Virus record (IMG/VR): IMGVR_UViG_3300013426_000026
Location: 1 to 64,000 of that record
Reading direction: 5' to 3' (one strand)
Source of the DNA: a virus
Taxonomy: Duplodnaviria > Caudoviricetes
DNA: 64,000 bases
The notes beneath the pieces are model-generated. The model had not been told where the DNA came from. It saw only the letters and a program-made list of their open reading frames with translations, and did no database searches. The stretch's first letter is position 1, and each line of letters begins with the position of its first letter. Below, one piece after another: positions 1,461-54,285 of this stretch. The position numbers and the translations under genes are program-made.

Positions 1461-1529
1461 ATTTTGGACAAAATGTTAAAATTGACAATGTAGAAATTTT
1501 ATAGTATTATAGAGAAAGGAGATGGCAAA

Positions 1530-2177
1530 ATGGTAAATAAAAAAATTTTTAAGCCTGAAAAAAATTCAAGATAGTTGCCAAGCGTAATGAAATATTGTGC
1601 AGATAAAAAATATAATGATTTAATGTATGGTTATTTGTAGAATATTTCGGATTATAATAAAGATAAACCAGAAGATAGAATAGTAAAAAAATCTGAGATT
1701 AATTTTACCCGTATTGGAGAAATGCTTAAAATTAGTAGGCAAACTGCATCTAAATATTTTAAAAATTTAGTTATGTTAGGATTAGTTGAAGAAGATATAT
1801 AGAATAAATAGTATTTATTAAAGAAATTGCCTATGGATTGTGCATATTTAATTCCAAAAGCTACATTATAGTTATTAATAGATACGTTAAGTGAAAAGTG
1901 TATTTCTACTTATATGTTTTTATTTGGGTTATATTGTAGTAATAATTTATAGCCATATACTGTATCATTAAGTGCTATTAAAACATTTGTTGGTATGAGT
2001 GATGATAATGGTCATAGCAATAGTGTTTTTACTAATATATTTTTTGCATTAAAACGTCTTGGCTTATTAGATTATCATTTATCAACTTAGGTTAAAAGTG
2101 GTTTTGAAAATACGAAGACTTAGTATGTTATTGATTGCGTGAGACATAAGGTTGATATGACTGACCCTAATGGTTAA
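1530..2177 (+). CDS. winged-HTH DNA-binding protein, possible replication initiator (TAG=Gln, 215 aa)
   Basis: AAAGGAG RBS; open from ATG1530 to TAA2177 if 8 in-frame TAG are read through; HTH-like INFTRIGEMLKISRQTASKYFKNLVMLGLV; absent from the ORF track. Confidence 0.75.
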
Positions 2178-2443
2178 CAAAGCTCATCCTGAGAGTGTTA
2201 ATAAAACTCACCATCGTTGTTAAAAAAAATACAATCTTAATAAATAGAAATATGGGTTGAATAAATACGCCTCCCGCGGGGCTAGAATGTTATATCTTTT
2301 CGCTACGCTCAAGATATAACATTCTAGACGAGTTGTTTCTGGTTGAGTCGGTCTGGGGCTTATGTTTGAGGTGAATAGACTTGATGTAGAAAATGAAATG
2401 AAAAAATCATATTTGAAAAAGAAAGAAAGAGAGAGATTAAGTA

Positions 2444-2743
2444 ATGAGTTATTATCATTATGCTCCTGATGAATATATTATAGTTGGTAAAGATAATATT
2501 GATAAGGTATATAACATAATTTAGTATTTACCATTAGATACTTAGATGAAGATTATATTTGGTTGGTTAGCATCTGAGGGTAATAAGAGTGAGTGGTTAT
2601 ATGAAAGATTTGATTTTGATGAACCATTAAGTGTATATATTGATTTAGTTAAAGAAATATTAACTTAGGACGCTCCTGACTATGGTTATGACCATATATT
2701 GGAGGAATTAAACAAAAAGGATGAATAGAATGTTATTAATTGA
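2444..2743 (+). CDS. hypothetical protein (TAG=Gln)
   Basis: MSYYHYAPDEY... stays open to TGA2743 only with TAG readthrough. Confidence 0.6.
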
Positions 2744-3053
2744 TGAAAAGAAGTTATCATAGACGACTATTGAGGCTATTGGTCATAATTATGGCATAAG
2801 TGATGCAGGATTAATGTTTGATGAATATGCTAAGAAGGTATGTTAGGTATTGTAGGTCAAGAAGAAGAAAGGTATTGATAATAAAGTAATAGGGCAATTA
2901 AAACTTTGTGGATTAAGGGTTTATCTTTATAGCTTAACGGGGAAAGAAATGAATGCAAGGTCATATGCTGAATGGTTAGGAAAAGAATGCACATAGAGTA
3001 TTAGAAAAGATTTTAATAATGGATTAGAGGATTTAAAGGCTAATGGAGAATAA
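2721..3053 (+). CDS. hypothetical protein (TAG=Gln)
   Basis: MNRMLLIDEKK... stays open to TAA3053 with TAG readthrough; overlaps the end of the previous gene. Confidence 0.6.
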
Positions 3054-3358
3054 TTTTTATTTATAAGAGTAAAAATTGGTAAGGAGTGGTAGTAAAATGA
3101 TAACAAAATGGATAAAAAATGGAATAAATTGATGCCGATTGGTGAAAGTTGCCTGCCCTTATGCACAATATGTATTTTAATTTTTTAATCTATATTCGAC
3201 CATTATCAATCACAAAATTTTAATTACCATATATTACCATTTCTTCCATCTTTTGGAATTTGAATTTTAAAAAAAATTTTGTTATAATATATATACAAAA
3301 AATAAATAATAAAGAAAGAAGGAGTAAGACCTCTTTTACGAGGTCTGAAAGACCGAGT

Positions 3359-3983: not shown

Positions 3984-4682
3984 TTATTCAGCCTTTTCCT
4001 ACCATGCCTTTAATTTCCATAAAGATACACTATCAGGCACAAATTTATACTATGAATAGAACTAATCTTTTGCTCTTTCCCAGCATGCTCTATGTATTTT
4101 ATAAATATAATCTTTAACTTCTTTCTCAGTCAATTCACCATTATCGCCTAAGCTTTGATATTCAGCTATTAATTCAGCTCGGCCTTCGCCATCTTCACTA
4201 ATATATATCTATATTAATTTTTTCCAAGTAGCTAATTGGCCAGGAGTTAACGGAATAAAATCAACTTCTTCGCCATAATATCTATGACACCAAACTCGCC
4301 TATCTGTAATAGCTATTTTCGGCAAATTCTCTCTTACATATTTATAAGAAGTATCAAATGAATGATTGAGCTTTTTTATTTCTTTACCCTATTGGATTAC
4401 TCGTCCCGTGCAAGTTTTATACATTTGTAAGGGCGTTTCTTTAATAACATTTTCTATACCACGTTGGTATAATTCATTATTACTTTCTTTGTCTCTTGGA
4501 TTAATATAATTTGGTTCATAAACTTTTATTATTTTTATTTTACGTTTTACTTCTTCAAAATCAGCAAAATATTTTAGATATTCCAATTTTTTTCTTTTGG
4601 TTTTTGTAAATGATGGGGGTTTTATCTAAAACCATTCTGCTAATTCTTCATTAGTATATATTTTTCCTTCTTCTAATATCAT
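3984..4682 (-). CDS. hypothetical protein, possibly DNA-binding (TAG=Gln, 232 aa)
   Basis: GGAGG RBS; MILEEGKIYTNEELAEWFQIKP... open to TAA with 6 TAG read through; includes track ORF 4389..4586. Confidence 0.75.
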
Positions 4683-4913
4683 TTTATCCTCCAAGCAATT
4701 TTATACCACGAAAATCCACAGTACATATTTCTTAGGAGTGGATTTTCGTGGTATGTTTTATTAGATTTTTAAGTGGTAGCGCGCGTTTCTATGGTATAAA
4801 AATGTCCTTTATACCATTATATATTAAAATCTATAGTATGGCCATTATCCTAACGTGCCCAATTTGATTTTTAATAAAAAATATGATATAATAAAAGAGA
4901 GAATTATTTTTAA

Positions 4914-6764: not shown

Positions 6765-7631
6765 TTAAAAGTCCTCTAAGCCCCAATCCTTGTCAAATCT
6801 TCCCAGCTTACGGAACGGGAAATATTCAATGCCCATTTCAAACTTGTGCTTGGTCTTTTTGGTAATGAGCGCGAACAGCATAGATTCAATCATAGCATCT
6901 TCAAGTGCAGTATGCGCTTCTTCAAAATCTACGTTATCAAAGCAGAAAGCGAAAGCTTTTTCCGCATTTGTCGGATAATACTTTCCGCTTGCGCTTCTCC
7001 AACCATTATCATAACAAGCTTGTTTGTATTCCGGCGTATTAAGCAAGTGTTCACAGGACAAGCCCCACAAATCAAACAGCGGATATTCCTTACCACGGAA
7101 ACGGAAAATAGTAGGTTCAAATTCTTTCTGCCCGCGCGGTTTATATCCCTTTGCGATATCATCACATCTTGACTTCTGGAACTCATACCACTTGAAATAA
7201 TCCGGCGAATACAATTCACTGATATAGAGGTCAGTAAACGGAATTGCTTTCTTAAAGTCAAACATGGAGTTATAAGCGCCAACTGCTTCAACCGCGTCCA
7301 AATCTTCTACAAGTTCCGCAACTGCCTTTTTCCAATCGGTCAACTGGATTTCGCCTTTGTCCAAACGCTCAAGATAAATCGGACGCTTGCTTGCATAGTA
7401 TGCGGTATTGAAAACATCCGGCACGCTAAAAATCTCAGAAATAAGATAAGACGCGCGCTTGTAGACATTGCCTTTAACATCTACAATCTGCCAACCTAAA
7501 TCATAAATAAGCGGTTTAGCGATTGCAATATTCTTACGCTGTTCCGCGCCATACTTGATTGCATACGGAAGCGTAGCAGTTTCGCAGTCGAGGATAAGAT
7601 AATACTTTCTTCTTTTGTCAAGCTTAGTCAT
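6765..7631 (-). CDS. DEDDh (DnaQ-like) 3'-5' exonuclease
   Basis: ExoI LILDCETA, ExoII AYNSMFD and ExoIII AHTALEDA motifs. Confidence 0.85.
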   Translation of the reverse strand: MTKLDKRRKYYLILDCETATLPYAIKYGAEQRKNIAIAKPLIYDLGWQIVDVKGNVYKRASYLISEIFSVPDVFNTAYYASKRPIYLERLDKGEIQLTDWKKAVAELVEDLDAVEAVGAYNSMFDFKKAIPFTDLYISELYSPDYFKWYEFQKSRCDDIAKGYKPRGQKEFEPTIFRFRGKEYPLFDLWGLSCEHLLNTPEYKQACYDNGWRSASGKYYPTNAEKAFAFCFDNVDFEEAHTALEDAMIESMLFALITKKTKHKFEMGIEYFPFRKLGRFDKDWGLEDF

Positions 7632-8130
7632 AGGTTTAACCGTCCTTTAATATAGTCAATAGGGCTTGCCATCGCTTCCCTTATTGCTCTTTAATTATAT
7701 CATGGAAATAAGCATTTGTCAAGAAGTTTTTTTTATATCTTGAAAATTCTTTTTAATGCTTTAACCACTCGCGCCCAAACGCGCTTCTTTTTTTATCTAT
7801 AGATAGTTTATCACACTTTGCCCAATTTGTCAACAAGTATTTTTATCCATTTTTTGTGCATGAATATACAATACCATTAAATGGAAGTGTGCGCCGTGCG
7901 CGGACACTTTAGCGCTTTAGCGTATTAAAGTGGCGCACTTTAGGGATTTAATACTTTAGTCAAATGAAGTTGGATTTCGCTGGAAAAATTGGTAGAAGCT
8001 GGAAAAATCTAAAATTCTGCGCGTGGTGTCCCATCACGCGCAGGCCAAATGTCAATAGGCAAAATGCACAAATTTTATGGAAAAACATAGAAAAAATGGT
8101 AGAAAATACAAATTTTCTACCATTTTCTTC

Positions 8131-19559: not shown

Positions 19560-19973
19560 TTAACATGGAGAAATTACTCCTTTGTCTTGGTCGAATCTAT
19601 AACTAAAATGTCCATTGGCAAATTTATATACTTCAACTTCGGAGATAATATATTGTTCTTCTCTTTTTATTTGATTATCTCCAAAAGTAATGCCAATTGG
19701 GTCGCCCTCATTTTCATATTTAGATAAATCAAATTGCGTAAAAATATCTTTACTTTTTACTGCGCGAACTATACCTGTTCCTTTATAAATGCCTTCCAAT
19801 CCGCCGTTAAATTCTATCAATTTTTTATCATCTTTAAAATTTAAAAAATCTTCATATGCCTTATTATATTCTTTAAAATACTTCTCGCGCTTAATCGCTT
19901 TTATAATGGCTTTCGCGCCTTCATAGATACCAAGCGCGCATATACCTCCAAGAAGGCCTTGGGCAAACTTCAT
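19560..19973 (-). CDS. hypothetical protein with N-terminal hydrophobic anchor
   Basis: AGGAGG RBS, 137 aa. Confidence 0.7.
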   Translation of the reverse strand: MKFAQGLLGGICALGIYEGAKAIIKAIKREKYFKEYNKAYEDFLNFKDDKKLIEFNGGLEGIYKGTGIVRAVKSKDIFTQFDLSKYENEGDPIGITFGDNQIKREEQYIISEVEVYKFANGHFSYRFDQDKGVISPC

Positions 19974-20291
19974 TAATCGTTCCTCCTTAATTCTTATATT
20001 ATATAAGTATAATTATTTTTTCTTATGCTTATCCTCGCCAGTATAAACTCCTTTTCTTTTGGGTTTTTCTCCCCACAAAGCAATATAAACAGCGGAAGTT
20101 GCGCTATTAGTTGCTCTTCTTTTGGCATTAGATGCCATACTACCAAGGATACCTCTAGGTTTTCTCATAATTATTACTCCTTTTTTTATTATCTATTTGT
20201 TAATTATATTATATAAAAAAATAGGAAATTTTTCAATTAATACTTTTTATATAAAATTAAATAGCTGTCAATTATCACGCTTTGGCCAAGG

Positions 20292-20320
20292 TTGACATTG
20301 AAAAAATTTTGTGTTATAAT
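20292..20320 (+). promoter_or_regulatory. sigmaA consensus promoter opening the rightward unit
   Basis: TTGACA-17bp-TATAAT with extended TG. Confidence 0.85.
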
Positions 20321-20350: not shown

Positions 20351-21406
20351 TTGATAAAATTAGATTATACTCTTGAAACTCCTGAAGAAAGAAATGAATT
20401 AGTCAGAAAAATTTTAGAAGAAAATCCCGACCCAAATGATAAATATTTGGAAATTCTTGCAGACTATTTAATTCTTTGTATGGAGAAACAAGAAAAAAAA
20501 GAAAAAAAGATATTAACTGATAATAGATTAATGACAGTTAATAAACGTGAAACTTCTTTTGAAGGTCTTGTTTCCCAATTAGAAAATGGTGAAGATGGTA
20601 TTTATAATTTAATTAATAGCGATAAAAATATGATATTTTAGCCTAAAATAACAATTACAAAGAAAGATTTAGAAGATATTCCATGTTTACAATAGTTAAA
20701 AGATACTATTACCCTTTGGGAAACAAAAATGAAAACAGTAAGTGGTAAAGATGCCTTTACTATGAAGCGCGCGCTTATTGAAATGCGCAAAGACCAATAT
20801 GTAATTAAAAATGCTTATCGGAAACCAATAGTGCCGATTAAATTAACTCGTTCTAAATACAAAGTTGTTTTGGATGAAGATGTTAAGACATTTGATGATG
20901 ACGGCTATCCTATTCCAGAAGGCGTATCATTAATGAATCCTGATATTTGCTCTTGTATTTTATGCAATTATTCGCGTTTAAAAGAAGATAGCTGGGACCG
21001 CTTTGAAGATGATACTTGGTATTTAATTTATGATTTTGAACAAACTTGCGATGAAGCCTTGGCTGACCATCCTATGTTAATGCGTATCGTAGAATATAAA
21101 ATTGATGGTTTGTCTAACGCCGATATACAAGAAGCAATTGAAGCGGAATTTGGTATAAAACATAGCCTTGAATATATTTCAAGTTTATTCCGTAATAAAA
21201 TTCCTAAGTTAATTGCGAGTAAAGCCATCGATAAATATTTAGAATGGTATTATTCAACTTAGGCACAAGGCACTTATAAAAAATGTAGCCGATGTGGGCA
21301 AGTTAAGTTAGCGCATAATAAGTATTTTTCTTTAAATAAAACAAGTAAAGATGGTTTTTATTCTATCTGTAAAGAGTGCCGGAATAAAAGCCGTAAACTT
21401 AATTAA
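20351..21406 (+). CDS. putative transcription regulator, HTH-like segment plus C-terminal CxxC..CxxC zinc finger (TAG=Gln, 351 aa)
   Basis: joins track ORFs 20351 and 20729 through TAG at 20639, 20693 and 21260; GLSNADIQ...SLEYISSL; CSRC...CKEC. Confidence 0.7.
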
Positions 21407-21429: not shown

Positions 21430-22987
21430 TTGGCCGATAATAGTAAATTATATTATTGTGAAAAATGCCATAAAACGATGGATGGTGCTCAATTTTACAC
21501 TTCAAACAATTTAGAAAAATATCCTAATGACGGCAAATTGCCTCAATGTAAAAAATGTATAACTATGCATGTAAATAATTGGGACCCAAGTACGTATTTA
21601 TGGATTTTACAAGAGGCTGATGTTCCATATATTCCCGACCAATGGAATCAGCTTATGGCGAAATTCGCTAAAGACCCTAAGAAAGTAGGCGGAACTACTA
21701 TTATGGGGCGCTATCTTTCAAAAATGAAACTTAATCAGTGGAAAGAGTATCGTTGGAAAGATAGTTAGTTTTTACAAGATTTAAAAAATAAAGAAATTTC
21801 CGAAACAATGAAAAATCAAGGCTATGACATTTAGGAAATAACTAAAGTTATTACTTAGACTTCATTCGATATGCCGACCGAGGAACTTGCTTAGCCGGAA
21901 GTACCTGCGGCGATTGGTGAAGCAAACATAGCTGATTATTCAATTCAACCACCTCCTCCGCCTCCTGGAATGAGTACCGCGGATGAAGATTATTTTAAAG
22001 ATAAACTTGATTTTGATGTGCCGGATCTAGGTGCGGAATTAACTGATGAAGATAAGCGTTATCTTTATTTAAAGTGGGGTAAAGGTTATACTCCTGATGA
22101 ATGGGTGCGCTTAGAGCAATTATTTAATGAAATGATGTAGTCTTATGATATTTAGTCGGCAGGCCACATTGATACATTAAAACTTGCTTGTAAGACATCA
22201 TTAAAATCTAATCAATTGCTCGATATAGGCGATAAATAATATCTATGTCGCCTTTAAACTCTTTTAATTGCTGGAAACCCCTTAGAGCTACATCAACCAC
22301 AACGTAGTCATGAAATATGGGCAAGCGTGATGGTTTGAAAATGATATGGATTGGGCAATCAGCAACTAAGGCTCGAATAGAGCAAAGCTCAACGACTAGT
22401 CGAAAGACGTAGGGGCAAGCGCCTCGAAATGGAGAGCATCTTTTTAAATTATTGGTAAAAGATGAAGATATAGTCTGAACTTTATAGAAATATAAAGAAA
22501 AAGCAGTAGCGATGCTTTAAACAAAATTATGGTAGACGGCGCCCAAAAGATGGTAAAAATGTATGATTAGTTGATGAAGAGTGGTAAATTTACTGCTGCT
22601 CAAAATAAAGAAGAATCGGGCGATTTTGTTGACTCTGTTGGTGAATTAATAGAAATGTGTGAAAAACAAGGATACATTGAACGATTTTATATTGATTCAC
22701 CAAATGATAAAGTAGATTTTACTATTCAAGATATGCAAAAATATACAAGAACTTTAATTGAGCGAGAAACTAATCTTGGACCTATGATTGAATAGGCTTT
22801 AACTCAAAATGCTAAAGAAGATGCAGCAGCTAAAGAAAATACAGAAGATACCATCGTCGATGATGCTGATTTATCTATTGAGGATATGGAAAAAACATTA
22901 AATGACAATGATTATGTTGCTTTTGACGAATTTTTAGATAATGAAGCTGAATTAGATATAGATGCTTTCTCTGATAGGGAGGATTAA
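21430..22987 (+). CDS. putative terminase small subunit-like protein, spliced (21430-22233 + 22532-22987; TAG=Gln)
   Basis: N-terminal CxxC..CxxC; lies immediately upstream of TerL; removing the intron restores the frame LLDIGD|VDGAQKM. The function is inferred from position only. Confidence 0.65.
22234..22531 (+). ncRNA. group I intron without ORF (298 nt)
   Basis: P1 GGCGAU/GUCGCC with U.G; P AATTGCTGGAAAC, Q AATCAGCAACT, R TCAACGACTA, S AAGATATAGTCT; terminal G; P10 GUAGA/UCUAU. Confidence 0.9.
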
Positions 22988-22990
22988 TTT

Positions 22991-33497: not shown

Positions 33498-33532
33498 TTT
33501 TGACAATTACTAAAAATTAATATATAATATTT

Positions 33533-36106: not shown

Positions 36107-36697
36107 ATGAAGATTGATAATGTAAAAAATCCAGAGTCTGCATTTTTGGCTCAAGAAAAAGATATGCGCATTATAGTTGATCGTATGGCCGCGAATCAGC
36201 GCTTGCGCAAACTACTTTATTATACTACAGCCGATGCTTTAAAACGTCCCGAAGTAAGTGATAAATTATTTGCGGAAATGTTTGGGAAAAATATTAAAAA
36301 TTTACCGAAACTTTATGTGGATAAAGATGTATTAAATTACATTGTTATTAGTTTTGATAATTTTGCTCCTAATGGAGAAAATCCCGAATTTAGAGATAAT
36401 ACTATTGAATTTGATATTGTTTGTCACTATAGCTAGTGGCAATTAGCTGATTCTTTTTAGTTAAGACCTTATCGTATTGCGGCGGAATTAGATAGTATGC
36501 TAGATAAAAAGCACTTAACTGGTATTGGACAATTAAATTTCATTGGCGCATAGCAAATTATATTAACTGATGAATTTGCTGGACTCTGTTTATTATATGA
36601 TACTATACATGGAGGAGAAGATAAAAAATTTATGCCTAATCCTGTGGACGAACAAATGTTTATCGAGGATTATTTTAAAATGCCTAAGATGAATTAA
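36107..36697 (+). CDS. putative tail terminator/completion protein (TAG=Gln)
   Basis: FDIVCH..QW...RPYRIA.ELD; position before the tail tube gene. Confidence 0.6.
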
Positions 36698-37431
36698 TGG
36701 ATTACAGATTAGGTTTAATGTGTGGAATTGATTTACCAATTCCCGATATTCCTTTAGTTATTCATTAGCCTAAAATAAAGGAAATAGCATTAATTGGCGA
36801 GAAAGAATTTTTTATTGGCGCTCAATGTTTATGTATTAATAAAAATAGTATAGTCGCGTAGGACAAAAATGATTTAGGCACTACTACTAATTTTTAGATA
36901 TTTATGATGGTAATGCTACAAAACGATAAAGCGGATAGAAAGAAAGCCACATCTTAGGTATTATCATTATTATTCCCTAATTCAAAATCTATTTTTACAC
37001 CACGTTCTATTATTTTATAGTTTTTAGATAACGAATAGTAGATATTAATTGACGAAAATAATTTTGATTTAATTTAGTAGGTAGCAAGACAAATTTTTTG
37101 TTTTGATACTAATAAAAATGGGCAAGATAGTTATAATCCTGCTAACAAAAAAGCTCAAGAGATAGCTAATAAATTAATGAAAGGGCGTCAAAGAGTTGCC
37201 GAACTTAAAGGGGTTACCGATTCAAGCGTTTTGAGCCAATACATTTCATCATTGACTATTGGATTAAATTCAATGTCGTTGGAAGATTGTATGAATCTAA
37301 CATTATATTAGTTATATGATTTAATAGAAAGATTCTCTTTATATACTAATTGGGATATAGATATGAAGAGTCGTTTGGCAGGAGCTAAGTCTGATAAAAA
37401 GCCCGAAAATTGGATGAAAAATATCCATTAA
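36697..37431 (+). CDS. hypothetical tail-region protein (TAG=Gln, 244 aa)
   Basis: TAATG-coupled start; open to TAA37431 only with readthrough. Confidence 0.65.
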
Positions 37432-38251: not shown

Positions 38252-39575
38252 ATGAAATTTGGTGTGAATCGCTTGCACTAATATACCCTATCCTTTATCA
38301 AAGGGGTTTGTTTAAATAACAAGCTAACGGGGAATGTCCTTAAGAAGGAAGAATCCCGTGTCATGTTTATTTTATAATAAACGCGATGTAGAGACTAAAT
38401 ATTTTAATCAATATTGTAAGTCCACTATTGATACGTGGGCTGAAAAGGGTATAATAATGGCTTTGACCATTATTAAGAGATAGTCCATAATTTAATAATT
38501 ATGACGCGAAATATGCGATGTAGTATTAAAAGCTCGTGCTCCTATGAAGGTTGGTAATAAAGTTTTCTATGCTAATGAGCCTGTTCTTTATTTCGATACG
38601 TTAAAAACTTCTAGCCTTGAAGGCGCTTCTACTACGGTTTATGCGCAAGGTGGTCGTGGTAATGCTCGTTTAGTTGCATGGGATGGCGACCGTACTTTAA
38701 CGTTTACAATGGAAGATGCTCTTATTTCGGCGGAAGGCTTTATGATTCTTGCTGGCGCCGGTCTTATTGATGCTTCTAAGCAGAATACTATTAAACAGCA
38801 TGTAACCGAAAAGACTACGGCTGTTGTTCTTGCGGAAGACAAGAAGAGTGTTCAAATTTTTACCAAGAATTTACCTTACGAGCAGATTGATGCTACTACT
38901 GGTGCGCACAAGGGTGAATTCTATATCTATGCTATGCGTGTTGACAATGATGAGCCTGTAACTGAGCCTTATCTTCCTACTGTTATTCGTCAGGCTGAGG
39001 AAACCACTAAGCCTCAGAAGTTCTATTTTGATGAAGACGAAATGAAGTATAAGACTTGCACTGACGCTGAAGCTGAGACTAAGGCTAAGGCAGGTGTCCA
39101 GATTTATTATGGTCTTCAGATTAAGGAAATCACTTCTACTTATAGTATTGTAGATGAAACTGATGCCGATGCCGAACATAAGATGGAACTTTTTGATGGT
39201 GCGGTTGTTCTTCTTGATTATTACATCGAAAGAGCAAGTAAGGCTCGTCAGATTGAAATTACTGCCGAATCTTTTGGTGGCAACTTCTATCTTGAAGCTT
39301 CTACCTTATTCCGTACTCAGGATGGCGTTGATCTTCCTGCGGAATTTATAATCCCGAATTGCAAGATTCAGTCTAACTTTACCTTTAGTATGGCTGCTAC
39401 TGGTGATCCTGCGACTTTCACTTTTACGCTTGATGCTTTCCCTGGAACCACTCGTTTCAATCCTACTAAGAAAGTGCTTGCTGCTGTTCAGATCATTGAA
39501 GATATTGATAACGATAGTGTTTATCGTACTCAGACTATCCATGATCCGGCTCATGACAGCTACTTTGATATTTAA
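38252..39575 (+). CDS. major tail (tube) protein, spliced (38252-38265 + 38504-39575; 361 aa)
   Basis: AAGGAGG RBS; splicing gives MKFGVREICDVVLKA; GGRGN..L..W and IPNCKIQSNFTFSMAATGDP; no TAG. Confidence 0.8.
38266..38503 (+). ncRNA. compact group I intron without ORF (238 nt)
   Basis: P1 UUUGGUGU/GCACUAAA with U.G; P CTAACGGGGAA, Q AATCCCGTG, R GTAGAGACTA, S AAGAGATAGTCC; terminal G. Confidence 0.88.
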
Positions 39576-41768: not shown

Positions 41769-44700
41769 ATGGCTAATAGAAATAATAGTGCTTCATATGA
41801 TGTAAAACTTGCTTTTACGGCTGATACTGCGTAGGCGAGACAATAGCTAGAAAATTTATAGAATGAGCTTACTAAATTAGCTAATTTTAAATCCACAGAT
41901 ACTTTAACTCATGGATTAAATAAAGAGCTAGCAGAAGCATCTATTCAAGCTAATCAATTGAAGAATAGTTTAGAGAAAGCTACTGATATTAATACGGGAA
42001 AATTAAATTTAACTGCTTTTTCTAACGAATTAACCAAAAATGGTAAAAGCATAGACGATTATAGAAAAGCTCTTGTTGCATTAGGTCCTTCTGGGGAAGA
42101 AGCTTTTTTACAATTAACGTAGAGTATAATTACTGCCGATGCGGCTTTAACCACCGGTAATAAGAAATTAAATGATTTTAAGAAAACTTTAGCTAATACT
42201 GTTAAATGGTAGATTTCTTCTAGCATGATGCATAATTTTATAGGTGGTATTGAAACGGCTTATAACTATGCAAAAGATTTAGATAGATCTCTAACTGATA
42301 TTAAAATAGTTACTGAAAGTAGTTCATAGTCAATGGCCGATTTTGCCTAGAAAGCTAATAAGGCGGCATAGGCTTTAAGTACAACTACTAATAATTATGC
42401 TTAGGCCTCCTTAATTTATTATCAGTAGGGCTTAAGTGGTAAAGAAGTAGAGGATAGAACTGCGGTTACTATCAAAATGGCTAATGCCGCTGGCGAAAGT
42501 GCATCTAAAGTTTCTGATCAATTAACCGCGGTTTGGAATAACTTTTATGATGGTAGTAAGTCTCTTGAATATTATGCTGATGTAATGACGAAGCTTGGTG
42601 CCTATACGGCGTCTAGTACTGATGAAATTTCAGAAGGTATTCAAAAGTTTGCATCTGTTGCTAATACTATCGGTCTTAGTTATGAATATGCCACTTCGGC
42701 ATTGGCTACATTAACTGCTCGTACTCGTGAAAGTGCAGATACAGTAGGTAATAGCCTTAAGACTCTTTTCGCGCGTATTCAAGGTCTTAGTTTGGGTGAA
42801 ACACTTGAAGATGGTACCGATTTAAACAAGTATTCTAAAGCTCTGATGAAGGCTGGCATTGATATCAAGGATTAGAATGGTGAATTAAAAGAAATGAATA
42901 CTATCCTTGATGAAATGATGGATAAGTGGGATGGACTTAGCCGAGCTGAACAAGTTGCATTAGCATAGACGGTTGGCGGTGTTCGCCAATATACTCAACT
43001 TGTTAATCTTATGGAAAATAAAGATTACTTTAAAGAATTGGTTGGCGTTGCTGAAAATTCTACTGGTTCTTTAGAGACTCAAGCAGAAATTTATGCTGAT
43101 AGTTGGGAAGGCGCTCGTAAAAGAGTCTAGGCCGCTGCTGAGGGTATTTATGATAGCTTAATTGATGAAAATTTCTTTAAAACTGTTGATGATGTAACAG
43201 CCACTACTTTAAATGGTATTAATGCTATTATTACAGGTTTGGGCGGAATTAAAGGCGTTGTTTCAAGTTTAGGGGCTTTAGTATTTAATATTTATCGTAA
43301 AGAAATATCTACGAGTTTAAATTCTTTCGGTAATATGATTTATAATATGACCCCCCAAGGACAAAAAGCAGTTGAAAATCGTAGGCAAGAAGCATTGGCT
43401 TCTGAAAAGAAAATGTTTGAAAGCTTTTATAATAGTCCTGCAGAAGATAGAACGGCGGATGATGTGGCTCGTATTAATAAGTATCAAACAATTTATGAAT
43501 TTTCTCAAAAGATTTATGATGTATCAGAAAAATTAACTGATGAAGAAAAGAAGTAGGCCGCATAGCATTTAGACATTATAAATTCTTTAAGCCAAGAGGC
43601 TATTAAATATGGAGAAATTTATGAAAAAGCTAATAATGCAACTGAAGAAACTAGATTAAAATTATTTTAGACTATTCGGGCTAAAGAAAATGGTAATCTT
43701 TTTACAAATGTAGATGAAGAAAGATTTTTTACTGCATAGAATTAGGCGATAGCAGCGAGTGTTTATCGTAAATAGGCTTCACGGACTGGTGCTTTTGGAT
43801 ATAATACCGATAAAGACGATTTAATTTTTTATTTAGATCACTTAGAAAAATCAACATAGAATTTTTTAAGAGCGAATGATAATTTAATTGGCGGTGAGGG
43901 CTTTTAGAACTATCGATTAGCGGACAATGCTCAAGTTTTAAAAATAATTCAAAATTTAAAAGCTGAAATTAATTCTTTAGATAAAGATGGTAGCTTAAAT
44001 AATGTAATAGATAAAATCAATTTATTAATTACTGGTGACAGAAAAATAGAAGATAAATTTAATGGCCAAGAAGGTAAAAAAGAATTAATTAAGGCTGGAT
44101 TTATAGATAGTAATAATAAAAATCATTATTTTGCTGGCGTAAGAAATTTAGCTCGTAATCAAGAAGAAAATTATAATTAGAGTTTTACGAGCAGATTTGA
44201 GAAGGTTGCTGGAACATTTAATTTACGCCCATAGGAGATAGAGGCTGTATATAATTCTATGACTAAATTATCATAGGCTGAGTATGACAGTGCTATGGCC
44301 GCTGGAAATGTGTCTAGAGCCAATTAGATTATGGGAGAATGGCTTGATAAAGTTTCTCAAAAGACTACATCAACCTCCGAAGCTATGGTAGCATTTGCAG
44401 GTGCATGTATGAATTTAGCCTCTTTTTCAAATTAGATAAAAGGATTTTTTGATACGTTAGCTAACCCTAATACTACTGCGTTAGAAAAAACAGTAAGTAT
44501 TTTAACTTCTATTGGCATGTTAGTTCCATAGTTTATTAATTTATAGAAGAATTTATAGTCTATCGGAAATAGTAAAGTTATTCAAAAAATAAAAGATTAT
44601 TTCGCTTCTTCTTTGGATACTTAGGAAACAGCTCGAAATACTACAGAAGAATTAAAAAATGCTGAAGCAAAAAGATAGGCCACTAGAGCTTCTAAAGGCA

Positions 44701-47700
44701 AAGCACAAGCCTTATAGCAAGAAGCAAGCGCTGAAAGTGCAGACACTGCGGCTACAGGTTCACGAGGATTACTTTCTAACATATCCGGAGCCACTTCACT
44801 TGCGATTGGTTTAGGCTCTGTTATAGCTATTTTAACTCTTATTAATTAGTTGTTTGAGGCTCATAAAAATAAATTAATAGAAACTGCATAGACTAGTTAG
44901 GAATATTTATAGACTTTAAAATCAGAAATAGATACTAATAATGAGTTAATTGACAGCTATGAAGAAACTTTAAAGACTTACCAAAAGACCGGAGAAGGAA
45001 AAGCGGAATTACGAGAAGTAGGCAGTAAATTATGTGATAGCTTAGATATTGAAAATTCAGCTTTATTAATTCAGCAAGGACGGTATGAAGAGTTAGCGAA
45101 AAAAATTAAAGAAGCTAATTAGGCTAAATTAAATGGCTCAATATAGTCAGCCGACCAGGCTATTAATGATAATTTTTCCGCGGGAATTTTACAAGGTTCA
45201 TACACAAAGTATAATTCTACTCAAGGAACTCATAGAATTTATAGTGGTAATAAAAATAAGTTTACTAAAGATTTTGAAATAGAGTTATTAGCTGATAATC
45301 CTAATTTAATTGGATGGGACAATTATACTTCGATTAGTAATTCTAATGATTTTGTTAATTGGTATGAAAAAGCTTAGAATATACAACAAGCTACTTTAGA
45401 AAAAGCCGGAAAACAAGGAATTAAAACAGAAGATATTTCTTATCTTAAAAAATTAAATGAATTTTTAGCTGATAATAAAGAATTTTATGAAAATACAAAA
45501 GCTTTATTAGATAATGAAAATTCTTTAATATTAGATAAAGCGTGGTTTGGTTCAGATTCAGAAAATGTAAATTCTTTAAAAGAGTATACAAATTTTCTTA
45601 AAGAATTTAAGAGTGAGACTTTAAGTTTAAATTCTGAAGATTCTGATGGAATTATTAATAGTTATTTATTTGGTAAAGAGGGTATTGGGAACTATGCCCT
45701 TTAGTATTCTGCTTTGGAAGAGTGGTTAAAAAATGCTAATGTTACTTCCGCAGTTACTCCTGAAGATATAATAAATAATTTTTCTGATTAGGATATTGAA
45801 ATATTATTAAATTTACGTACTGAGGCTACTGGAGTTATTAGCGGAAATGATTGGATTTCTTCTTTTTAGAATTTAATTAAACTATCTCAAAAAATAGCTG
45901 ATAATTCGCCCATTGAATTTAATATTTCAATTGCAAAAAAAGCAAAAGAAAAATTAAAAAAAGAAATGGACGAAGATGATTGGACTAAATATTTTAAAGA
46001 TGTAGATATTCCTTGGGGACAAAAAGGTTGGGTTACATAGTCTGGTTTTTAGTCTATGACTGATAATCAAAGATAGCAATATTTATCATAGAAATAGATT
46101 GAAGAAAATCAAACAAATTATGAATTAATTTAGAATAAAGATGCTTGGATTGCTAATTAGCAAAGTATTTATGATGAATTAATAGCTAATAATACGGCTA
46201 AAATATAGGATTTAAATAATTCAGCACCGACTGATGAAGATATTCAAAGAGCACAAAATACAATAAATAATGATGAACAAAGATAGTCTAACCTTAAGTG
46301 GTTAGAAGAAATGACTAATACTTATAATTAGATTTTAGAAGATGCTGGATTAAAAGATTAGAATGCTATTGATAAAGCCTTAGATGCTAAATCAGATGAA
46401 GCAAATAATGCTTTAATACAAGCTTATAATCTTATGTCTTTAGCTTAGGCGACTGTAGATAGAGATAATTAGAATTTAATTAATGCATAGGATACAATTT
46501 CATTATCTGAAACTTATAGTGAATTAGTTACCGATGCTGAAAAATATGGTGAACAATTAGCCTCTGAAAGAAATAATATTGAAGATTCTTATAATGCTAT
46601 TATTCAATCTTTTGAGAATTCTCGTAGTTAGATGCTTTCATCGATTAATCTTTAGAATTTAGATATCGGCGATACTATTACTGCTGATGCGTATTCAACA
46701 TTAGAGTCTTTTGGAATTCATGTAGAAGATTATTTTTCAGAAATGGATGATGGTACTTACAAATTAATTGCAAAAGCATAGGAATTAAATAAAATTTTAG
46801 GAGTAGCTTCTATTGAAAATGCTTATAATGCTGCTGATAATTTTGTTAGCTCTATTTATAAATCTTAGAATCTTGAGCTTCCTGAAAATATGCAAATTCC
46901 GCGAGATACTTTTTTAACTATAACCAATAGTATAATAGATAAAGGTATTCCATCGAATTGGGATAATGAGTATAAGGAATCTTGGATCAAAGCTGCCGGT
47001 TTGAATGTTGAAGAGTATAAAAATAAATTGGATGAAGGCGTTGTTGAAGCTGCTAAACATTATCAAGAATTAATTAATAACGGCGATTATCAAATCGATG
47101 TTACAGTTCTTAATTCTGATAATATGCTTGATTTAAACAAAAATGCTAAAGCTGCCGGAATAGATACAACGGATAAACGGTATACAGATGCTATGGTTAG
47201 TATGGCTTCAGAAGCGGGCATAGAGTATGACGCTACAGTAACTGCTGTTATTGATGCACAATCAAAATATGATGAAGCTATAAGTAATTATGGTGAAAAC
47301 TCAGAATTAGCCAAAAAAGCCACAGAAGATTTATCGAAAGCTCAAGATAATTTAGCTAAAAATATTCGTACTATTTAGTTTTATAAAGCAACAGAAGATT
47401 TAGCTAATTATATGAAAACTTTAAAAACTACTAAAGATAATACTGAAAAAATGACTACGGCAACTAAAGCCGCAGAAGCCATTAGTAAAGCTTTTGGTAA
47501 AACTGTTGATTCTTCTTTTGTTTTAGATAAGGAAAATTAGAAGTTAATTGATAAATTAATTAATGGCACTTAGAAGCAAAAAAATGAGGCAGCATTTAAG
47601 ATTGATTTAAAAATCGATAATACAGAATTTACAAAAGACGTGAAAGATGCAGTAAAAGATGCTTCGGGAGATGCTGGAGAAGAAATAAATAGATCTTTTG

Positions 47701-50700
47701 CTACTCAATTTGAATAGGTAGATTTAAGTGAATCTATAACTAATGGTATGGAACAAGGAGTCCAAACTGGGGCCGATGCGGTAAGGGCTACAATAAATAG
47801 TTTAAATGGATTAACTTTTAATGCAGATGGTTCTATTAATATGGATAATTCTTCGGCTGTTAGTGCCTTGCAAGGTCTTCAGACCGCTTTAGGTAATACT
47901 ACTGGAGAAGCTGGACCATTAGCTGGTATATTAAGCAGTATTTTATAGACCAGTATGACTCTTGATTCTGCTCAAATTCAAACTTTAGTAGATTTTTTAA
48001 CAGATTTATTTAATGCTTTATAGGGCGACGCAAGCGCCTTAGAGAGTATCGCTAGTAAAGGGGCTACTCAATTAACAAATGCTGGTATTGACATGACTGG
48101 CATGGGCCCAGGAGAAAACGAATGGACTAATATTACTACTAAAGGACCTTCTGGTGGAGGTGGAGGCTCTTCCTCTAAAAAGTCTGCTTCTGATATAGGT
48201 AAAGAAATTCAAGATAAACGTATTGCAGTTAATGAAAAAAAGCGTGAGTTATTAGAAACAAAACGTGAAGGTGCTAATCCAGAAGATGCACAAAAATATA
48301 TTAAAGAAGAAATTGACTTACTCGAAGAAGAACAATAGCTTCTTGAAGAATAGATTAAATCTTGGAAAACTTTATTAAAGACTAAAGTTCAAGAATTTAA
48401 TGCTAAACATCCAGAATTAGAAATTACTCTTGATGACAATGGCGAAATTGCTAATGCTTCTGAACTTTGGGGTAAAGTTTGGGCTGAATATGAAAAAAAT
48501 ATGCAAGAGGGCATGTCTGGCGAAGAACTCAATGAATGGTTTACTAAAATCAGTAATGATATTAATGGGCCTATGGGTATCCAAGAGAATATTGATGAAA
48601 ATGTCGCGGCCATTGCTTAGAAAGAAAAAGAGTAGGCTGAGCTTGAGCTTGAATCAATAACTAAAGCCATTGATTGGAAAGTCAAACAAATTGATTTCTA
48701 GATTAAGCGTCTTAATTATTATCAAGAAAAGCTTCTTAAATAGGCTCATGGCAATAAACAAACTATTGAAGCAATGCTTGAAGGATTTGCTTACCAAGAG
48801 CAAGAAATGCTTTAGTTGTTTGATAAAGGTGCTACATTGCGCAGTGGCATTGATCAATTAAATTCGGCGAAAGCACAATATCCAGATTATGCGCAAATGT
48901 TTGATGAATAGATACTTGATTATCAAAGTGATTTGATTGATGTTAATGAAGCTATTCTTGATTTGCGTAATGACATTGAAGACCTTGTGCAAAATGTTAT
49001 GGATTTGGCGCTTGATGAGATTGATAAATAGATAGAACGTCTTGATACTTATACATCAATGCTTGACCATCTTAATAATATTATTGATTTGTCTGGTCGT
49101 TCAATGCTTGATATGGGCCTGAAGACTTAGATTGGTGCTACTAAAGTCCAAACTATGATTGGCAAAATGACCACTCTCAAAGGTCAAATGGATGGTTTGG
49201 TTAAAGCGCAAAAAGAAGCCGAAGAAGCATTGGCCGATCGTAGGGCTGATGGAGATGAATCTTCTGTTAAGTTCTGGGAAAACCAAGTTGAGGTTATTAA
49301 ACAAGAAGTTGAAAAGGCATCCGATGAATTCCTTGGTTCTTGGGAAGAAACTCTTGAAGCTGCGCAAGATTTATTTGAAATGCGCGTGGAGATGGCAATT
49401 AATACATTAAGTAATGCCCTTTCGCCCTTTGAGACTCTTGAAGATTTTTAGGATAAATACGAGAAAGCCAAAACTATTAATGACCAATATCTTGATGATG
49501 CAGAACGCCTCTATGAATTAAATAAACTCAATCGCCAGCTCAATTTATAGATGAAAGATACTGATGACCTTTTGGCTCAAGAAAAACTTAAAGAGATTTA
49601 GAAAGAGATTAACGATCTTCAGGCCGATGGCGTCTAGATGAGTCAATATGACCTTGAGTATTTGCAAAAGAAATATGATTTACAACTTGCCGAAATTGCC
49701 CTTATGGAGCAATAGAATTCAAAGACTTCAATGCGTTTAGTACGTGATGCCGCGGGCAACTGGACTTATGCCTATGATGCCGATGAAGAAAAAATTGAGG
49801 ATGCTACATAGAAATATGAAGATGCGGTTCATGATTTAGGTGAGTTAAGTAAAGATTATATTAATGATGTAAGTGAATAGTTAATCCAAAATTAGATTGA
49901 TTTTAAAGAAGCCTTACAAGATCTTGATAAGAATTCGGCAGATTATTCCAATTAGCTGTTAGCTTTACAAGAATACTACGTTGAAAGACAAAGATATTTG
50001 CTTGATGAATTAAATAAAGGTGTTGTAAATAGTGGCCAAACCTTCCATGATACTTTATATGGTCAAATGACTGATTTGTATGATTACAATGATGCTTATA
50101 TGCAATTTGTTAATAATTCTAATATTACAATTAGTGAATTATAGACTAATTATAAAGATTGGCAAAAAGTTGTTGAAACTGCAATGAACGTTGCTGGTAC
50201 GTCTTGGGACAATTTTGGTACAGACATGGGAGGAACTCTTGATAGTCTTGAAGAACATATCCAAAAGCTTTGTGATGAAATTGAAGAACTCGTTGATGTA
50301 TTAATGGGTTATATTTCATAGTCTATTGGTATGGTTCTTGATTGGGAATAGAAATATTCCAAGAGAACTGACCAAGAGCTTGCCAAGAACGAAAGCTATA
50401 TTGATGGTAATTTTAGTGGCGGTGGGGGGAGGTATACTGACGTTGATATGCGTACTGATTGGAATCGTGTTATAGCTGAAATTACAGCTACTGGTACCTC
50501 AAAAGATGCCTATGGTAATATTGTTACAGATATTAATTAGGCTTATGAAAATCGTTAGGCAAAGTAGGATAAGATGAAGGAAGGCGTAAAAGCTGAACAT
50601 GAAAAGTCTGGTGAAAGCTTTACCGATGATGAGCAGGCAGCTGCAATTGCTAAATCCAATAAAGACGTAGCTGACGAAATGCATAAGAAATATGGTTCTG

Positions 50701-51086
50701 GCGCCGCAACAGGTGCTTATACTGGTGATTGGGGTTTTGGTCAAGGATTCGGTCCTGATAATGGCAAGTTAATTAAAGTCCATCCAAAGGAATTAATTCT
50801 TAATAAAAAGGATACTTCTAATATATTGCGCGCGGTTGATATTGTACGTAATATGAATACTTGGGTGGATGATTAGATTAAGCGCATGAACCAACAAAGT
50901 CAATCTGCGATTAGTGATTTAATGACTGATATTATGCCTCCTGTTTATAATGATTAGCCCATTCAATAGGACGTTAAGATAGAAGCTAATTTTCCGAATG
51001 TCACTGATCATTATGAAATTGAAGAAGCATTGTCTAATCTTAGTAATGATGCTGCATAGTACATCAGCGCGAATAGAAATAGATGA
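41769..51086 (+). CDS. tail tape measure protein (~3105 aa; TAG=Gln)
   Basis: seven track ORFs share one frame; TP901-type core (ESADTVGNSLKTLFARI); helical composition; C-terminal HPKELILN. Confidence 0.85.
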
Positions 51087-51131
51087 GGAGATTAATTTCT
51101 CCTCATCTATTTAGGAGTGAAAGGAGATAAT

Positions 51132-54100
51132 ATGGCTCACAATAGAAAAGAAGAATATCTGGCTGTTGTAAAATAGCCAAAAGAAATATCTAATACATTA
51201 TTAGAAACAATTGATTATATAGCGCAATAGCGTGATGCGGAATTATCTTTTGATAAAACCATTATTGCCGAAATAGTTAGTCTTAATAATGCGGATACTG
51301 GTGAATATTTTGTAGAATATCAAAAAGGCAAATTTCGTGCTTACACACCGACTAATTTAAATTATACATACTCTAAGGGAACTAATATATATGTTAAAAT
51401 CCCTGGAGGGGATTTTACTTAGAAGAAAATTATTGAAGGTAAGGTATCGGCCTCTTCTTATAGTGCTGAAGAATATGAAGCATTAGCTCAATAGGTAGTT
51501 GATATTAGTGATATTTATACTAATGCTAATGAATACTCTTTATTAGCCTATGCACAAGAAGATAGTGAATATTATCAAAAAGTAATCTATGAAAATCCTA
51601 GTTTAGAAGAAGATATAGCATTTACTAGCTTATTGAGTACTTACCCTAATATTAAAATTTCGGCTAATTTTAGGACTAAATTTTATGGGTCTATGGTAGC
51701 CGGTAATTATGGCATAATTGTAGATTTTTTAGAAAAAGATAGTGGAATTACTTATTCACGTAGATTAGATATAAATAATTTTTCAGGTAGTATATACAAT
51801 TATGAAGTAAATTCTCCATAGTATGCAATTTATGATATGTCAGGAATTAACCTTTTAGGTATTCAAAAAATTACTTTTTTTCAAGAACGTTTTATTAGAT
51901 ATGATACTGTTTTTAATGCTTATAATGAACCAGTAGAAGTATATAATAAAGAACCAAATATATTTGTAAATAATATAAAAATTAACTTTGTTGATATCCA
52001 AGATAGTTCCAAAGATTTATATTATGTAGGCATTAGCGCGCCTCAAGGCTTATCTTTAATTCAAGATACTGATAAAATTAAATTAACTGGCGTTTTATAT
52101 TATGCTGGGAAAGATATAATGGATAAAACCAACTGTATTTGTAGATGGTATAAGCAGAATCCGTCGGTTTTATCCGGAAGTGAAAAATATGATAAAGCTG
52201 CGGGTCCAGGTTGGGAAATGATAAATGATGGAATTAATTTAAATTTTAATGAACTTATTGTTTCTGGTAAAGATGTTTACTAGCAAATGCGTTATAAATT
52301 AGTTGTAATATATAATTCATCAGTAACTCTGAGCAAAGATGTACGAGTAGTTAAATATTATAATGAGCGCTTTACAATTATTCGAAATGATATTAGTGAT
52401 ACAGAGGTCAAATTGACTATTGTTGATTCATAGTCCAAAATAGAAGGCGCGGATTGGTATGTTGATTTATAGGATGGTTCTTATCTTGCTTTAAATAAGA
52501 ATACACTTGAAATAGATATTAGTCAATATTTAAGTTATGGCACAATAATGTTTTATGCCGTCGCTAAAATTAATGAAGATAGCGATGATTATGTTCCTTG
52601 CGAATACAAATTAGTTAATTATCTTAAAGATTCACCAGTACGAGTAGTATTTGATGGCAATGATACATTTTAGTATGACGAAAATGGTAGCATTACTTAC
52701 GACTAGTCAATTATGGAAATTATTATAAAACCGACGATTACTGTTGATAAAGAGAATATCGGCGTAAAAACTATAACCTGGTTTTCACCCGATGGTGCGG
52801 AATTAGTTGAATATCCTACTACTAAAATTACTAATTCTATGATTTCTAAATTATGGATTGATAAAGCCACTAATTCAGTACATTATAATATACGTCAAAA
52901 GTATTATGCTAATTATACCAATAATACTTTATCGTTACGAATTATTACTTTGGCCGATAAAGAATTTTATTTTAGTAAAGGTATTATATTTACAAAACAA
53001 GGATAGTATAAAATTAATGGTCAAGACTATTCTTTTACTATTAAACAATGTTCTGCGGATGGTAGCGAAATTAGTCAACGGCCATTAAATAAAATGAAGG
53101 CAGAAGATGAATATGAACCTATTTATTTTAAACCTGAATTGCGTTTAAATGGGGAAATAATAAAAAATGGAACATCTTATAAAGATGAAGATGGCAATTT
53201 ATTAAGTACCTATAAGATATAGATAAGCACAAAAGATATTAATATTACTAGTGAATTATCAAATGCTGAATAGAATATCTATAAAATTACAAAAGCTACT
53301 GATGATTGTGACGGTTAGTATTTTATTAAATTTACTGCCTCTATTGGATTAAGTGGCAATCAAGTAAAAAAGCAATATTTGCATTAGTATCAACCAATTA
53401 TGGTTAGTTTAGGCGCGGAAATAGATAATATCGGAACAATTTCTATACCTTCTAAAATAATATATGATGCTTCTGGTACGCCCGCTTATTCTTCATCTAC
53501 CGCAATCTCTTTTAAATATAAAACTTCTAAAAAGAAAGAAAAAGAATTAATTGGTAAAAATACAAAATCGTTAACCAGTAATATTTTTCTCTATCCTATT
53601 ACTTATGGAGATGGCAAAGGCGGATATTATTTACGTCCTGTAGATAGTTATAGTGGTGCTTACTTTGCTGGTAGCACGGACACAGTAAAAACAACACCTA
53701 TGGGAGCTTTACAGATTACTATTTCTAAAAAGGCTTATATTATTTATCCAATAGTAATGTTGACTAGTAAAGATACCGGCGTAACTGATAGTAATACTGA
53801 TGGTACAAAAACAAGTACAGTTGATGATGAAGATGCAGAAAAAACTTCTCCAGTGAATGGAGTTTTAAATATAAATAATGAAAATGGCTAGAACATAATT
53901 GGCGCAATAGATAAAGTTACTACTCCTGGTGCTTTTACTTAGTCTTTAGAAGGTGTAGAGTAGAATTATTAGTCCATCCCCGGATTATTTTAGTATGATA
54001 CCGATGGTATTCCTACTAATGTACTGCGCTCTGATGGATTTGTTAGATTGGGCGGAAATGGTATAGTTATTAAAGATGGAAATGTAAAAGTGAATGATGC

Positions 54101-54179
54101 GGATATTTTAACCACTAAAAGTATTATTGCATGGATTTAGGCACATAAAGATGAAGTTAAATAGATATTAGAATTATAA
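51132..54179 (+). CDS. tail tip/baseplate protein (~1015 aa; TAG=Gln)
   Basis: four track ORFs in one frame; beta-rich; follows the tape measure gene. Confidence 0.7.
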
Positions 54180-54212
54180 TGGAATAGATTTTAATCTATT
54201 CCATTTTTTTAT
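54178..54212 (+). terminator. intrinsic terminator
   Basis: AATGGAATAGA-loop-TCTATTCCATT followed by a T run. Confidence 0.7.
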
Positions 54213-54285
54213 TTGGTCCAAAGACGTATATTTATTACAATTGATTTTTAAAAATAAATAGAATAGAGTTAAAGGAGGCAAATAA

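Follow-up and report, generated by a model that had tools for sequence, protein, structure and literature searches.

The present work concerns a repeated bipartite sequence element in a linear virus record of 103,394 bp (IMG/VR record IMGVR_UViG_3300013426_000026; CheckV completeness 56%), of which the initial 64,000 nucleotides (nt) are referred to below as the window. The source phage is phAss-1-like and reads the stop codon TAG as glutamine. On the plus strand from 20.3 kb on, TAG is plainly a sense codon, and the open reading frame (ORF) at 41769-51086 (3105 codons) contains 95 in-frame TAG triplets. The minus-strand block at 5-20 kb has a higher G+C content and consists of small TAG-free genes, many of which lie behind their own perfect TTGACA-N17-(TG)TATAAT promoter. 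The group studied here matches the published phAss-1-like phages, which have a tape measure protein of about 3100 amino acids (aa) and are kin to Enterococcus phage EF1 (PMC10607447); with the recoded phages of that type it shares the tape measure of roughly 3100 aa, the use of TAG codons in genes for structure and lysis and, where relatives are complete, a suppressor tRNA. Genomes of the relatives measure 150-195 kb. A tRNA gene with anticodon CUA is present in G2, one of the complete relatives, and no tRNA genes were found in the fragment under study. A non-recoded relative, G003, encodes a full RpoD-like primary sigma factor (L084 1255-2205) with 56% identity to Lachnospiraceae RpoD, which hints at the host group and at a reliance on sigma-A-type promoters.

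A preliminary description of the window had noticed the pattern TWGG(A/G/T)(C/T) followed by ATTTT 30-32 nt past its first T, had listed six copies of it (here called S1 to S6), and had proposed that it forms a phage-specific late promoter which precedes recoded genes and couples transcription to the change of genetic code. The pattern is present at all six places. As a search term it is loose and of low information content: it matches 13 times in the window, counting both strands (16 times in the whole record), compared to 6.2 +/- 2.6 matches in dinucleotide shuffles, of which 4 of 200 reach 13, and 7 of the 13 window matches are coding, the listed copies having been the non-coding-looking ones only. 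When the count is restricted to intergenic DNA, five matches are observed where 0.63 are expected (P about 0.001), which is an enrichment.

The original observation largely stands for S1, S2 and S6. S1 (1453..1528, + strand) comprises an A-tract and TTGGAC at 1464-1469, TTGACA at 1482-1487, ATTTT at 1496-1500, TATTAT at 1505-1510 and a ribosome-binding site, and is followed by an ATG at 1530; its TTGACA-17-TATTAT agrees with the sigma-70 promoter consensus at 11 of 12 positions. It lies, as described, ahead of a winged helix-turn-helix gene, which is ScpB-like, contains 8 TAG codons and is strain-specific, having no homolog in relatives G1 or G2. A second box, TGGACAAAA, occurs nearby at 1214. 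S2 (4798..4873, - strand) has TTGGGC at 4862-4857, TGGCCA at 4844-4839, ATTTT at 4830-4826 and TATAAT at 4821-4816, and scores 10 of 12 as a sigma-70 promoter. The gene downstream, 3984-4682, contains 6 TAG codons and is likewise strain-specific; it is absent from G1 and G2, in which the corresponding slot (99685 in G1, 72993 in G2) is occupied by HNH endonuclease genes that stand behind a homologous copy of the element. A search of IMG/VR found no relatives of the S1 and S2 genes. S6 (54206..54285, + strand) begins, as had been noted, directly after a terminator (54178-54205), and consists of the palindromic box TTTGGTCCAAA at 54212-54222, ATTTT at 54244-54248, ATAAAT/TAGAAT at 54254-54264, a weaker -10 than those of S1 and S2, and a ribosome-binding site ahead of the ATG at 54286. 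It precedes a recoded tail-fibre-like gene of 1120 aa with 21 TAG codons, and G1, G2 and L082/L083 all retain its box as well as the block ATTTTTAAAAATAAATAGAA.

Membership in the element was ranked with a sequence-only Infernal model, R2, whose seed consisted of nine similar sites, all from other genomes and thus outside the window, and which was run over the whole window with the filters off. The ranking separates the six copies clearly, with three inside the family, two at its border and one outside it. S1 (matched at 1454-1522) ranks first with 32.3 bits, S2 (4807-4871) second with 23.8 bits and S6 (54210-54274) fifth with 19.1 bits, at E-values of 7e-9, 3e-6 and 1e-4 that are rough because the calibration of the model was shortened. 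S3 (26136-26197, +; 11.2 bits, E 0.033, rank 11) and S4 (27139-27201, +; 10.0 bits, E 0.081, rank 14) are borderline, and S5 (36861-36902, +; 8.4 bits, E 0.26, rank 21) falls outside the family. The model also finds members which had not been listed. One at 19959-20006 (+; R2 E 2e-5, and E 9e-5 with model R1) stands at the head of the plus-strand, late block, where the consensus promoter at 20292 follows some 290 nt further downstream. This member overlaps the ribosome-binding site and start of the divergent gene 19560-19973 and has orthologous matches in G2 and L057. Another, at 7730-7779 on the minus strand (E 4e-4), also fits the regular expression of the pattern, lies upstream both of the early gene 6765-7631, which has no TAG, and of a perfect sigma-A promoter at 7722, and has an ortholog in G1 as well as a paralogous copy at G1 103178. 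A weaker member at 20229-20289 (-; E 0.005) is built on the palindrome TTGGCCAA (20282-20289, conserved in G1 and G2), lies between divergent promoters at 20236 (-) and 20292 (+), and precedes a TAG-free gene. Outside the window, a member at 64.76 kb of the record (E 2e-5) follows a terminator and leads into a gene cassette situated after a holin gene; eight or more recoded relatives retain this site, with TTGGCA, TTGACA, TAGGAC or TTGGAC as its box. A match at 30451 (E 0.008) is coding.

Palindromes of the form TTGG(N)CCAA, found at 20282-20289, at 54213-54221 and at 75.78 kb of the record, lie beside promoters; the record contains four copies, three of which are intergenic, and binding sites of the operator type are a possible interpretation. 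A separate inverted repeat, TGCACAA-N~18-TTGTGCA, occurs 9-10 times in the non-redundant intergenic regions of the relatives.

The two borderline copies are look-alikes, S3 within a mobile insertion and S4 within a hairpin. S3 is situated inside an insertion at 24910-26425 which is absent from G1 and G2, downstream of an HNH ORF (25128-25850), and the insertion is presumed to be a group I intron carrying that ORF. A search of 23300-26500 against Rfam gave no hit even at E 1, so that the intron status given earlier to this insertion is supported by synteny and by the HNH ORF only. S3 is followed, as had been said, by a remnant ORF of only 16 codons. The region 26170-26197 is alike on both strands (TTTCATTATTATATGAAA, with the inverted repeat TTTCAT...ATGAAA), and profiles therefore match it in either orientation. 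For 21430-27140 (+), which had been described as terL with three introns, the Rfam group I intron model is reached by the first insertion only, and the PHROG hits suggest two genes, one of which (phrog_3314) is split at 22240-22528 while the other (phrog_15503 and phrog_24618) is split by two insertions. S4 consists of TAGGGC followed by a 19-bp AT-rich hairpin at 27152-27195, whose loop supplies the ATTTT. It lies between the stop codon of 26505-27140, called terL in the preliminary description, and a 118-aa HNH-like gene before the portal gene. In most relatives this junction is only 10-26 nt long; hairpins with unrelated stems occupy it in L057, L036 and the non-recoded L022, L024 and L025, as a lineage-specific insertion of 60-70 nt. 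Pairing in the stem is kept while its sequence changes, L057 providing a compensatory change, and the hairpin is not a typical terminator because it has no T-run.

S5 (36859..36912, +), which had been placed upstream of a LAGLIDADG gene and the tail tube gene, is coding. It lies inside the conserved gene 36697-37431, a full-length match to phrog_4051, where it encodes …Q D K N D L G T T T N F Q I F M…, and the TAG triplets of both its TAGGAC and its TTTTAG are in-frame glutamine codons. The conserved stretch AATTTT(TAG)ATATTTATG encodes N-F-Q-I-F-M, and in the non-recoded L010 the same TAG is replaced by CAA. S1, S2 and S6, together with the site at 64.76 kb, do lie ahead of recoded genes.

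The architecture of the element is most apparent when its members are aligned on the -10 hexamer. The parts are an A-tract, a box T(T/C/A)GG(A/G)C(A)A, a T-tract ATTTTA just before the -10, and a -10 of the form TATWAT about 41 nt past the box, with a -35 that is weak or absent; as a searchable consensus derived from models R1 and R2 this can be written AAAAAWTTTGGRCAA, about 22 nt, ATTTTA, 2-4 nt, TATWAT. In 11 aligned members the box positions T12, G14, G15 and C17 are kept, as is an AA just ahead of the -35 position, positions A2 and T6 of the -10 are invariant, and the spacer of about 22 nt between box and -10 is free to vary. The spacing was evaluated over 597 non-redundant upstream regions, which came from the record itself, from two full relatives and from the neighbourhoods of 67 portal genes. 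In these regions T[TA]GG occurs 41 nt ahead of -10-like hexamers 13 times, as against about 3.3 times at each other offset, and the refined motif occurs 16 times at offsets 38-42 as against 3-5 times at control offsets. The quality of the -35 differs among members: S1 has TTGACA at 17 nt, S2 the weak TGGCCA, S6 no match, and most members from relatives score 1-4 of 6.

A comparison with the other promoters of the family separates what the element has in common with them from what is its own. Among the family's consensus promoters, 77 non-redundant examples have a spacer that consists of an A-tract, a T-tract and TG, with ATTTT beginning 14-15 nt past the first base of the -35 in 21% of cases; members of the element share this A/T-tract spacer with the consensus sigma-A promoters. 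An early reading, that the pattern was a product of chance and of sigma-A spacers, was adopted because S1 (TTGACA-17-TATTAT, 11 of 12) and S2 (TGGCCA-17-TATAAT, 10 of 12) resemble such promoters and because ATTTT is common in consensus spacers, and it was dropped after the tests of the spacing peak, the refined motif, the endonuclease genes and the left-out model. The box itself is found upstream of few consensus promoters, TTGG occurring in only 3 of 61, and its interpretation as a generic flank of the UP-element type was rejected on this ground. The preliminary description was correct that a bipartite, promoter-like element recurs here as a real entity, and that it differs from the TTGACA-N17-TATAAT consensus promoters which serve the TAG-free early cassettes. 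Its term "phage-specific" is not supported, since the downstream half is a standard sigma-A-type -10, the T-tract spacer is that of the family's consensus promoters, and S1 matches the sigma-70 consensus at 11 of 12 positions.

Several other search strategies were less productive. A two-block motif TTGRYA-N15-17-WATRRA, taken from the 64.76-kb site, was rejected, as it matches that site alone in each genome. The nhmmer profiles of early seed sets recovered only their own seeds, a position weight matrix of the downstream block alone was unspecific (27 of its 40 top matches are coding), and the enumeration of dyads after masking of sigma-A promoters returned mainly motifs of the group I intron core.

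The shared A/T tracts raise the question of whether the box has any role of its own. It may be supposed that the members are ordinary weak sigma-A promoters which resemble one another through descent or through the copying of promoter-bearing cassettes, with an A/T tract that acts like an UP element and a GG box that contributes nothing. Long stretches are identical in some pairs of members, for example ATTTTATAGTATTAT in S1 and the G2 copy at 72993, members tend to lie in accessory slots and ahead of mobile genes, and an A-tract and then a T-tract come before the box, all of which would suit such an origin. The boxes are nevertheless kept across four endonuclease families and non-homologous downstream genes while the 22-nt spacer between box and -10 varies freely, G14, G15 and C17 do not change in the 11 members, and TTGG is rare upstream of the consensus promoters; this reading is considered unlikely.

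The strongest association of the element is with homing-endonuclease and accessory cassettes, not with recoding. The five members which were found independently in relatives all stand ahead of homing-endonuclease genes, one of the LAGLIDADG type and four of the HNH type, belonging to several PHROG families. In the non-redundant upstream regions the refined motif precedes 7 of 22 endonuclease-like genes, compared with 9 of the 522 genes of other kinds (Fisher P 6e-7). The element mainly serves accessory and mobile cassettes, that is, homing-endonuclease genes and strain-specific genes, together with some restarts of transcription after terminators. Free-standing and intron-borne homing-endonuclease genes of T4-like phages, such as seg, mob and I-TevI, have promoters of their own, and the present case is similar in that selfish nuclease cassettes bring or acquire a promoter adapted to the phage. 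It differs in that LAGLIDADG genes and no fewer than three HNH families share a single bipartite element, within a clade of Bacillota-type siphoviruses.

The possibility that the pattern is a chance product of AT-rich DNA with no function is judged very improbable. Such an explanation accommodates the low information content of the pattern, the coding position of 7 of its 13 window matches, S5 among the coding sites, and the borderline standing of S3 and S4. It is opposed by the intergenic excess (P about 0.001), the spacing peak at 41 nt, E-values from the left-out model that go down to 7e-9, the association with endonuclease genes (P 6e-7), and the conservation of S6 and the 64.76-kb site in relatives.

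The proposed link to recoding and to late expression is not supported. Contrary to the statement that the element is not found before TAG-free cassettes, the members at 7730-7779 (-) and 20229-20289 (-) precede TAG-free genes, and a TAG-free HNH gene in G2 (G2 2149) also stands behind a member. Independent members lie ahead of TAG-containing genes in about 10 of 14 cases, which by hand count is not significantly above the baseline of near 59%. The recoded late block is moreover headed by a consensus sigma-A promoter (20292..20320, +; TTGACA-17-TGtTATAAT), and this promoter, ahead of gene 20351-21406, scores 10-12 of 12 in 33 of the 37 relatives examined, whether recoded or not. Further near-consensus sigma-A promoters occur inside the block at 33500, 38428 and 41023, the first and last of which are conserved in G1 and G2. 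The timing of the late proteins may therefore be set mainly at translation, through suppression of TAG. In G2 a sigma-A-type promoter that belongs to a repeated family is found about 115 nt ahead of the suppressor tRNA with anticodon CUA, and the presence of host-type promoters on the early genes, on the tRNA for the code switch and on the recoded late block thus fits translational gating. Stop-codon recoding has been put forward as a post-transcriptional control of late genes (bioRxiv 10.1101/2021.08.26.457843; for the phAss-1 group, PMC10607447); the words "promoter" and "sigma" are absent from both of these papers by word search, and the element is not in them.

Some observations on the promoters and genes of these regions may be recorded beside these results. 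The repeated promoter family has the form TTGAWT, an A-rich 17-nt spacer and TGnTATAAT; it occurs in the window at 3257-3306 and 4861-4893 (+) and many times in G1 and G2, and in relatives it is found near tRNA genes. Within the heavily recoded structural block the genes 32364-33497, 33599-34174 and 38544-39575 (+) contain no TAG and have a raised G+C content of 0.36-0.41, and the sigma-A-like promoters at 33500 and 38428 lie upstream of the second and third of these; it is possible that the virion proteins made in greatest amount are in this way kept independent of suppression. At 33500-33565 (+) a perfect promoter, TTGACA-17-TATAAT, stands directly ahead of a terminator-like G+C-rich hairpin with a T-run, and transcripts that start from it would begin in the 5' arm of the stem and might thereby escape termination. 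A T4-type late promoter, TATAAATA, was considered as a further candidate and rejected, with 15 intergenic occurrences against 7.8 expected and the box not kept in G2 at two of three sites; ATAAATA does occur 32-43 nt ahead of three late start codons (sites 41736, 54254 and 64799).

The interpretation in the preliminary description was that of a dedicated class of late promoters which need a phage factor that becomes available after the change of TAG to glutamine, so that transcription is coupled to the code switch. There are features of the element that would agree with this. Members have neither a good -35 nor an extended -10, and a helper is therefore probably needed; they are unlike the consensus promoters of the TAG-free cassettes; the genes behind S1, S2, S6 and the 64.76-kb site, and most endonuclease genes that carry the element, contain TAG; the member at 19959 stands at the head of the late block; and only weak matches occur in one non-recoded relative. 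Against this, the TAG-free targets, the lack of a significant excess of TAG-containing genes, the sigma-A-like -10 and the conserved consensus sigma-A promoters of the late block do not agree with the terms "late" and "coupled to the code switch". A promoter class of this kind is regarded as unlikely, and the interpretation survives only in part, as a repeated bipartite promoter-like element, while the phage-specific, late and code-coupled character that had been attributed to it is not supported. The data are compatible both with the presence and with the absence of a transcriptional switch coupled to the code switch.

A phage-coded factor would be required by such a model, and a candidate for it is the very conserved first gene of the late block, 20351-21406 (+), whose product of 351 aa contains a helix-turn-helix (HTH) of the sigma-region-4/GerE-like type and a C-terminal zinc ribbon (CxxC...CxxC). 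The gene has TAG at codons 97, 115 and 304; each of 44 recoded relatives has 1-6 in-frame TAG codons in it and 20 non-recoded relatives have none, as would be expected of any gene in the recoded set. The protein matches phrog_5767, "sigma factor" (E 5.5e-51), a name which is the only support from sequence for a sigma function, and it has over 6600 homologs, including proteins of Enterococcus, Brevibacillus, Clostridioides, Geobacillus and Mammaliicoccus phages; cultured relatives with the gene include Enterococcus phages EF1 and VRE9 and Enterocloster phage PMBT10. A search of the genome for a phage sigma factor, as had been suggested, gave no match to PF04542, PF04545 or PF08281; 57 members of the 351-aa family gave no hit to Pfam sigma domains, and hhalign against an RpoD-like alignment returned a probability of 1.3%. 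As a member of the sigma-70 family the protein thus fails the sequence tests of Pfam and hhalign, and this, with the expected nature of its TAG codons, tells against the coupled model. Sequence searches of the PDB found nothing, and Foldseek against the PDB and BFVD found no named relative. In an AlphaFold model (mean confidence, pLDDT, 86.6) residues 217-300 align to many sigma region 4 domains at Z 6-7.6, a fold which favours the coupled model, and the N-terminal half is without a clear match; the language-model neighbours, computed with the homolog P0004, are GerE/LuxR HTH regulators with scores of 0.91-0.94. From the predicted structure and these neighbours, 20351-21406 probably encodes a DNA-binding regulator and is a candidate in that sense, while a packaging role is conceivable for a protein encoded near the terminase genes.

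These elements could be joined in a more specific proposal, in which the TTGGRCAA box is the site of a phage-coded factor, with 20351-21406 as the candidate, that is completed only when the suppressor tRNA is available. Under this proposal box promoters that lack a -35, namely those of tail-fibre, lysis-cassette, endonuclease and accessory genes, would be permitted by the code switch to drive a second round of transcription, in a relay wired to the change of code. This relay is given a low probability.

The element may be compared with known promoter systems. It is like bacterial sigma-70/sigma-A promoters in its TATWAT with A2 and T6, the weak TTG-type -35 at 17 nt in some members, the A/T-tract upstream and the short leader into a strong Shine-Dalgarno sequence. 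It is unlike sigma-A promoters with UP elements in that it has, around -50, a core of specific sequence, GG(A/G)C, that is not known to be part of the UP consensus, and in that most members have neither a -35 nor an extended -10. Phage promoters which lack a -35 and depend on an activator include the T4 middle promoters with their MotA box, the late promoters of P2/P4 with an Ogr/Delta site near -55, the Mor- and C-dependent promoters of Mu and the phi29 A3 promoter activated by p4. The element resembles these in its good -10, its poor -35 and its conserved box at a fixed distance (the 41-nt peak; 16 versus 3-5), and it would work like them only if a putative phage factor binds the box. It differs from the MotA, Ogr, Mor and p4 systems in that its box sequence is unrelated to theirs, its members do not form one temporal class by sequence, and it mainly serves endonuclease and accessory genes.

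The reading that best accounts for these results, to which a probability of roughly 0.55 is assigned, is that the element is a sigma-A promoter of the host type that carries, upstream, a box specific to the clade, and that it is employed chiefly by mobile nuclease and accessory genes. The -10 would be read by host RNA polymerase carrying sigma-A, and the box, centred near -50, may offset the poor -35 either through a putative bound factor or through contact with the alpha subunit. Several considerations weigh against this reading. The promoter function is deduced from sequence features, none of the listed sequencing runs that contain this DNA being recorded as RNA, and the factor that binds the box is putative. 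The E-values of model R2 are rough, and its seed sites were chosen by eye among the pattern hits. At the 64.76-kb site the box of the G2 lineage is TTGACA and not TTGGCA. In the window the element is found at 4-5 of about 10 recoded unit starts as against 2 of about 20 TAG-free starts (P about 0.03-0.14, hand count), so that the element may have some preference for recoded units, a trend too weak to lean on. Finally, the complete non-recoded relative G003 gave weak matches only (best 17.1 bits, E 0.0013), which would also fit a link with recoding, although G003 is distant.

It is usually assumed that recoded gut phages time their late functions through translation only, and the promoters of recoded genes provide a test of that assumption. 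The element is a defined, searchable marker of endonuclease and accessory cassettes, and of some late restarts of transcription, in the phAss-1-like clade. Should the box turn out to bind a recoded phage factor, transcription would be tied to the code switch; otherwise the element keeps its value for the annotation of transcription units and mobile cassettes in uncultured phages.

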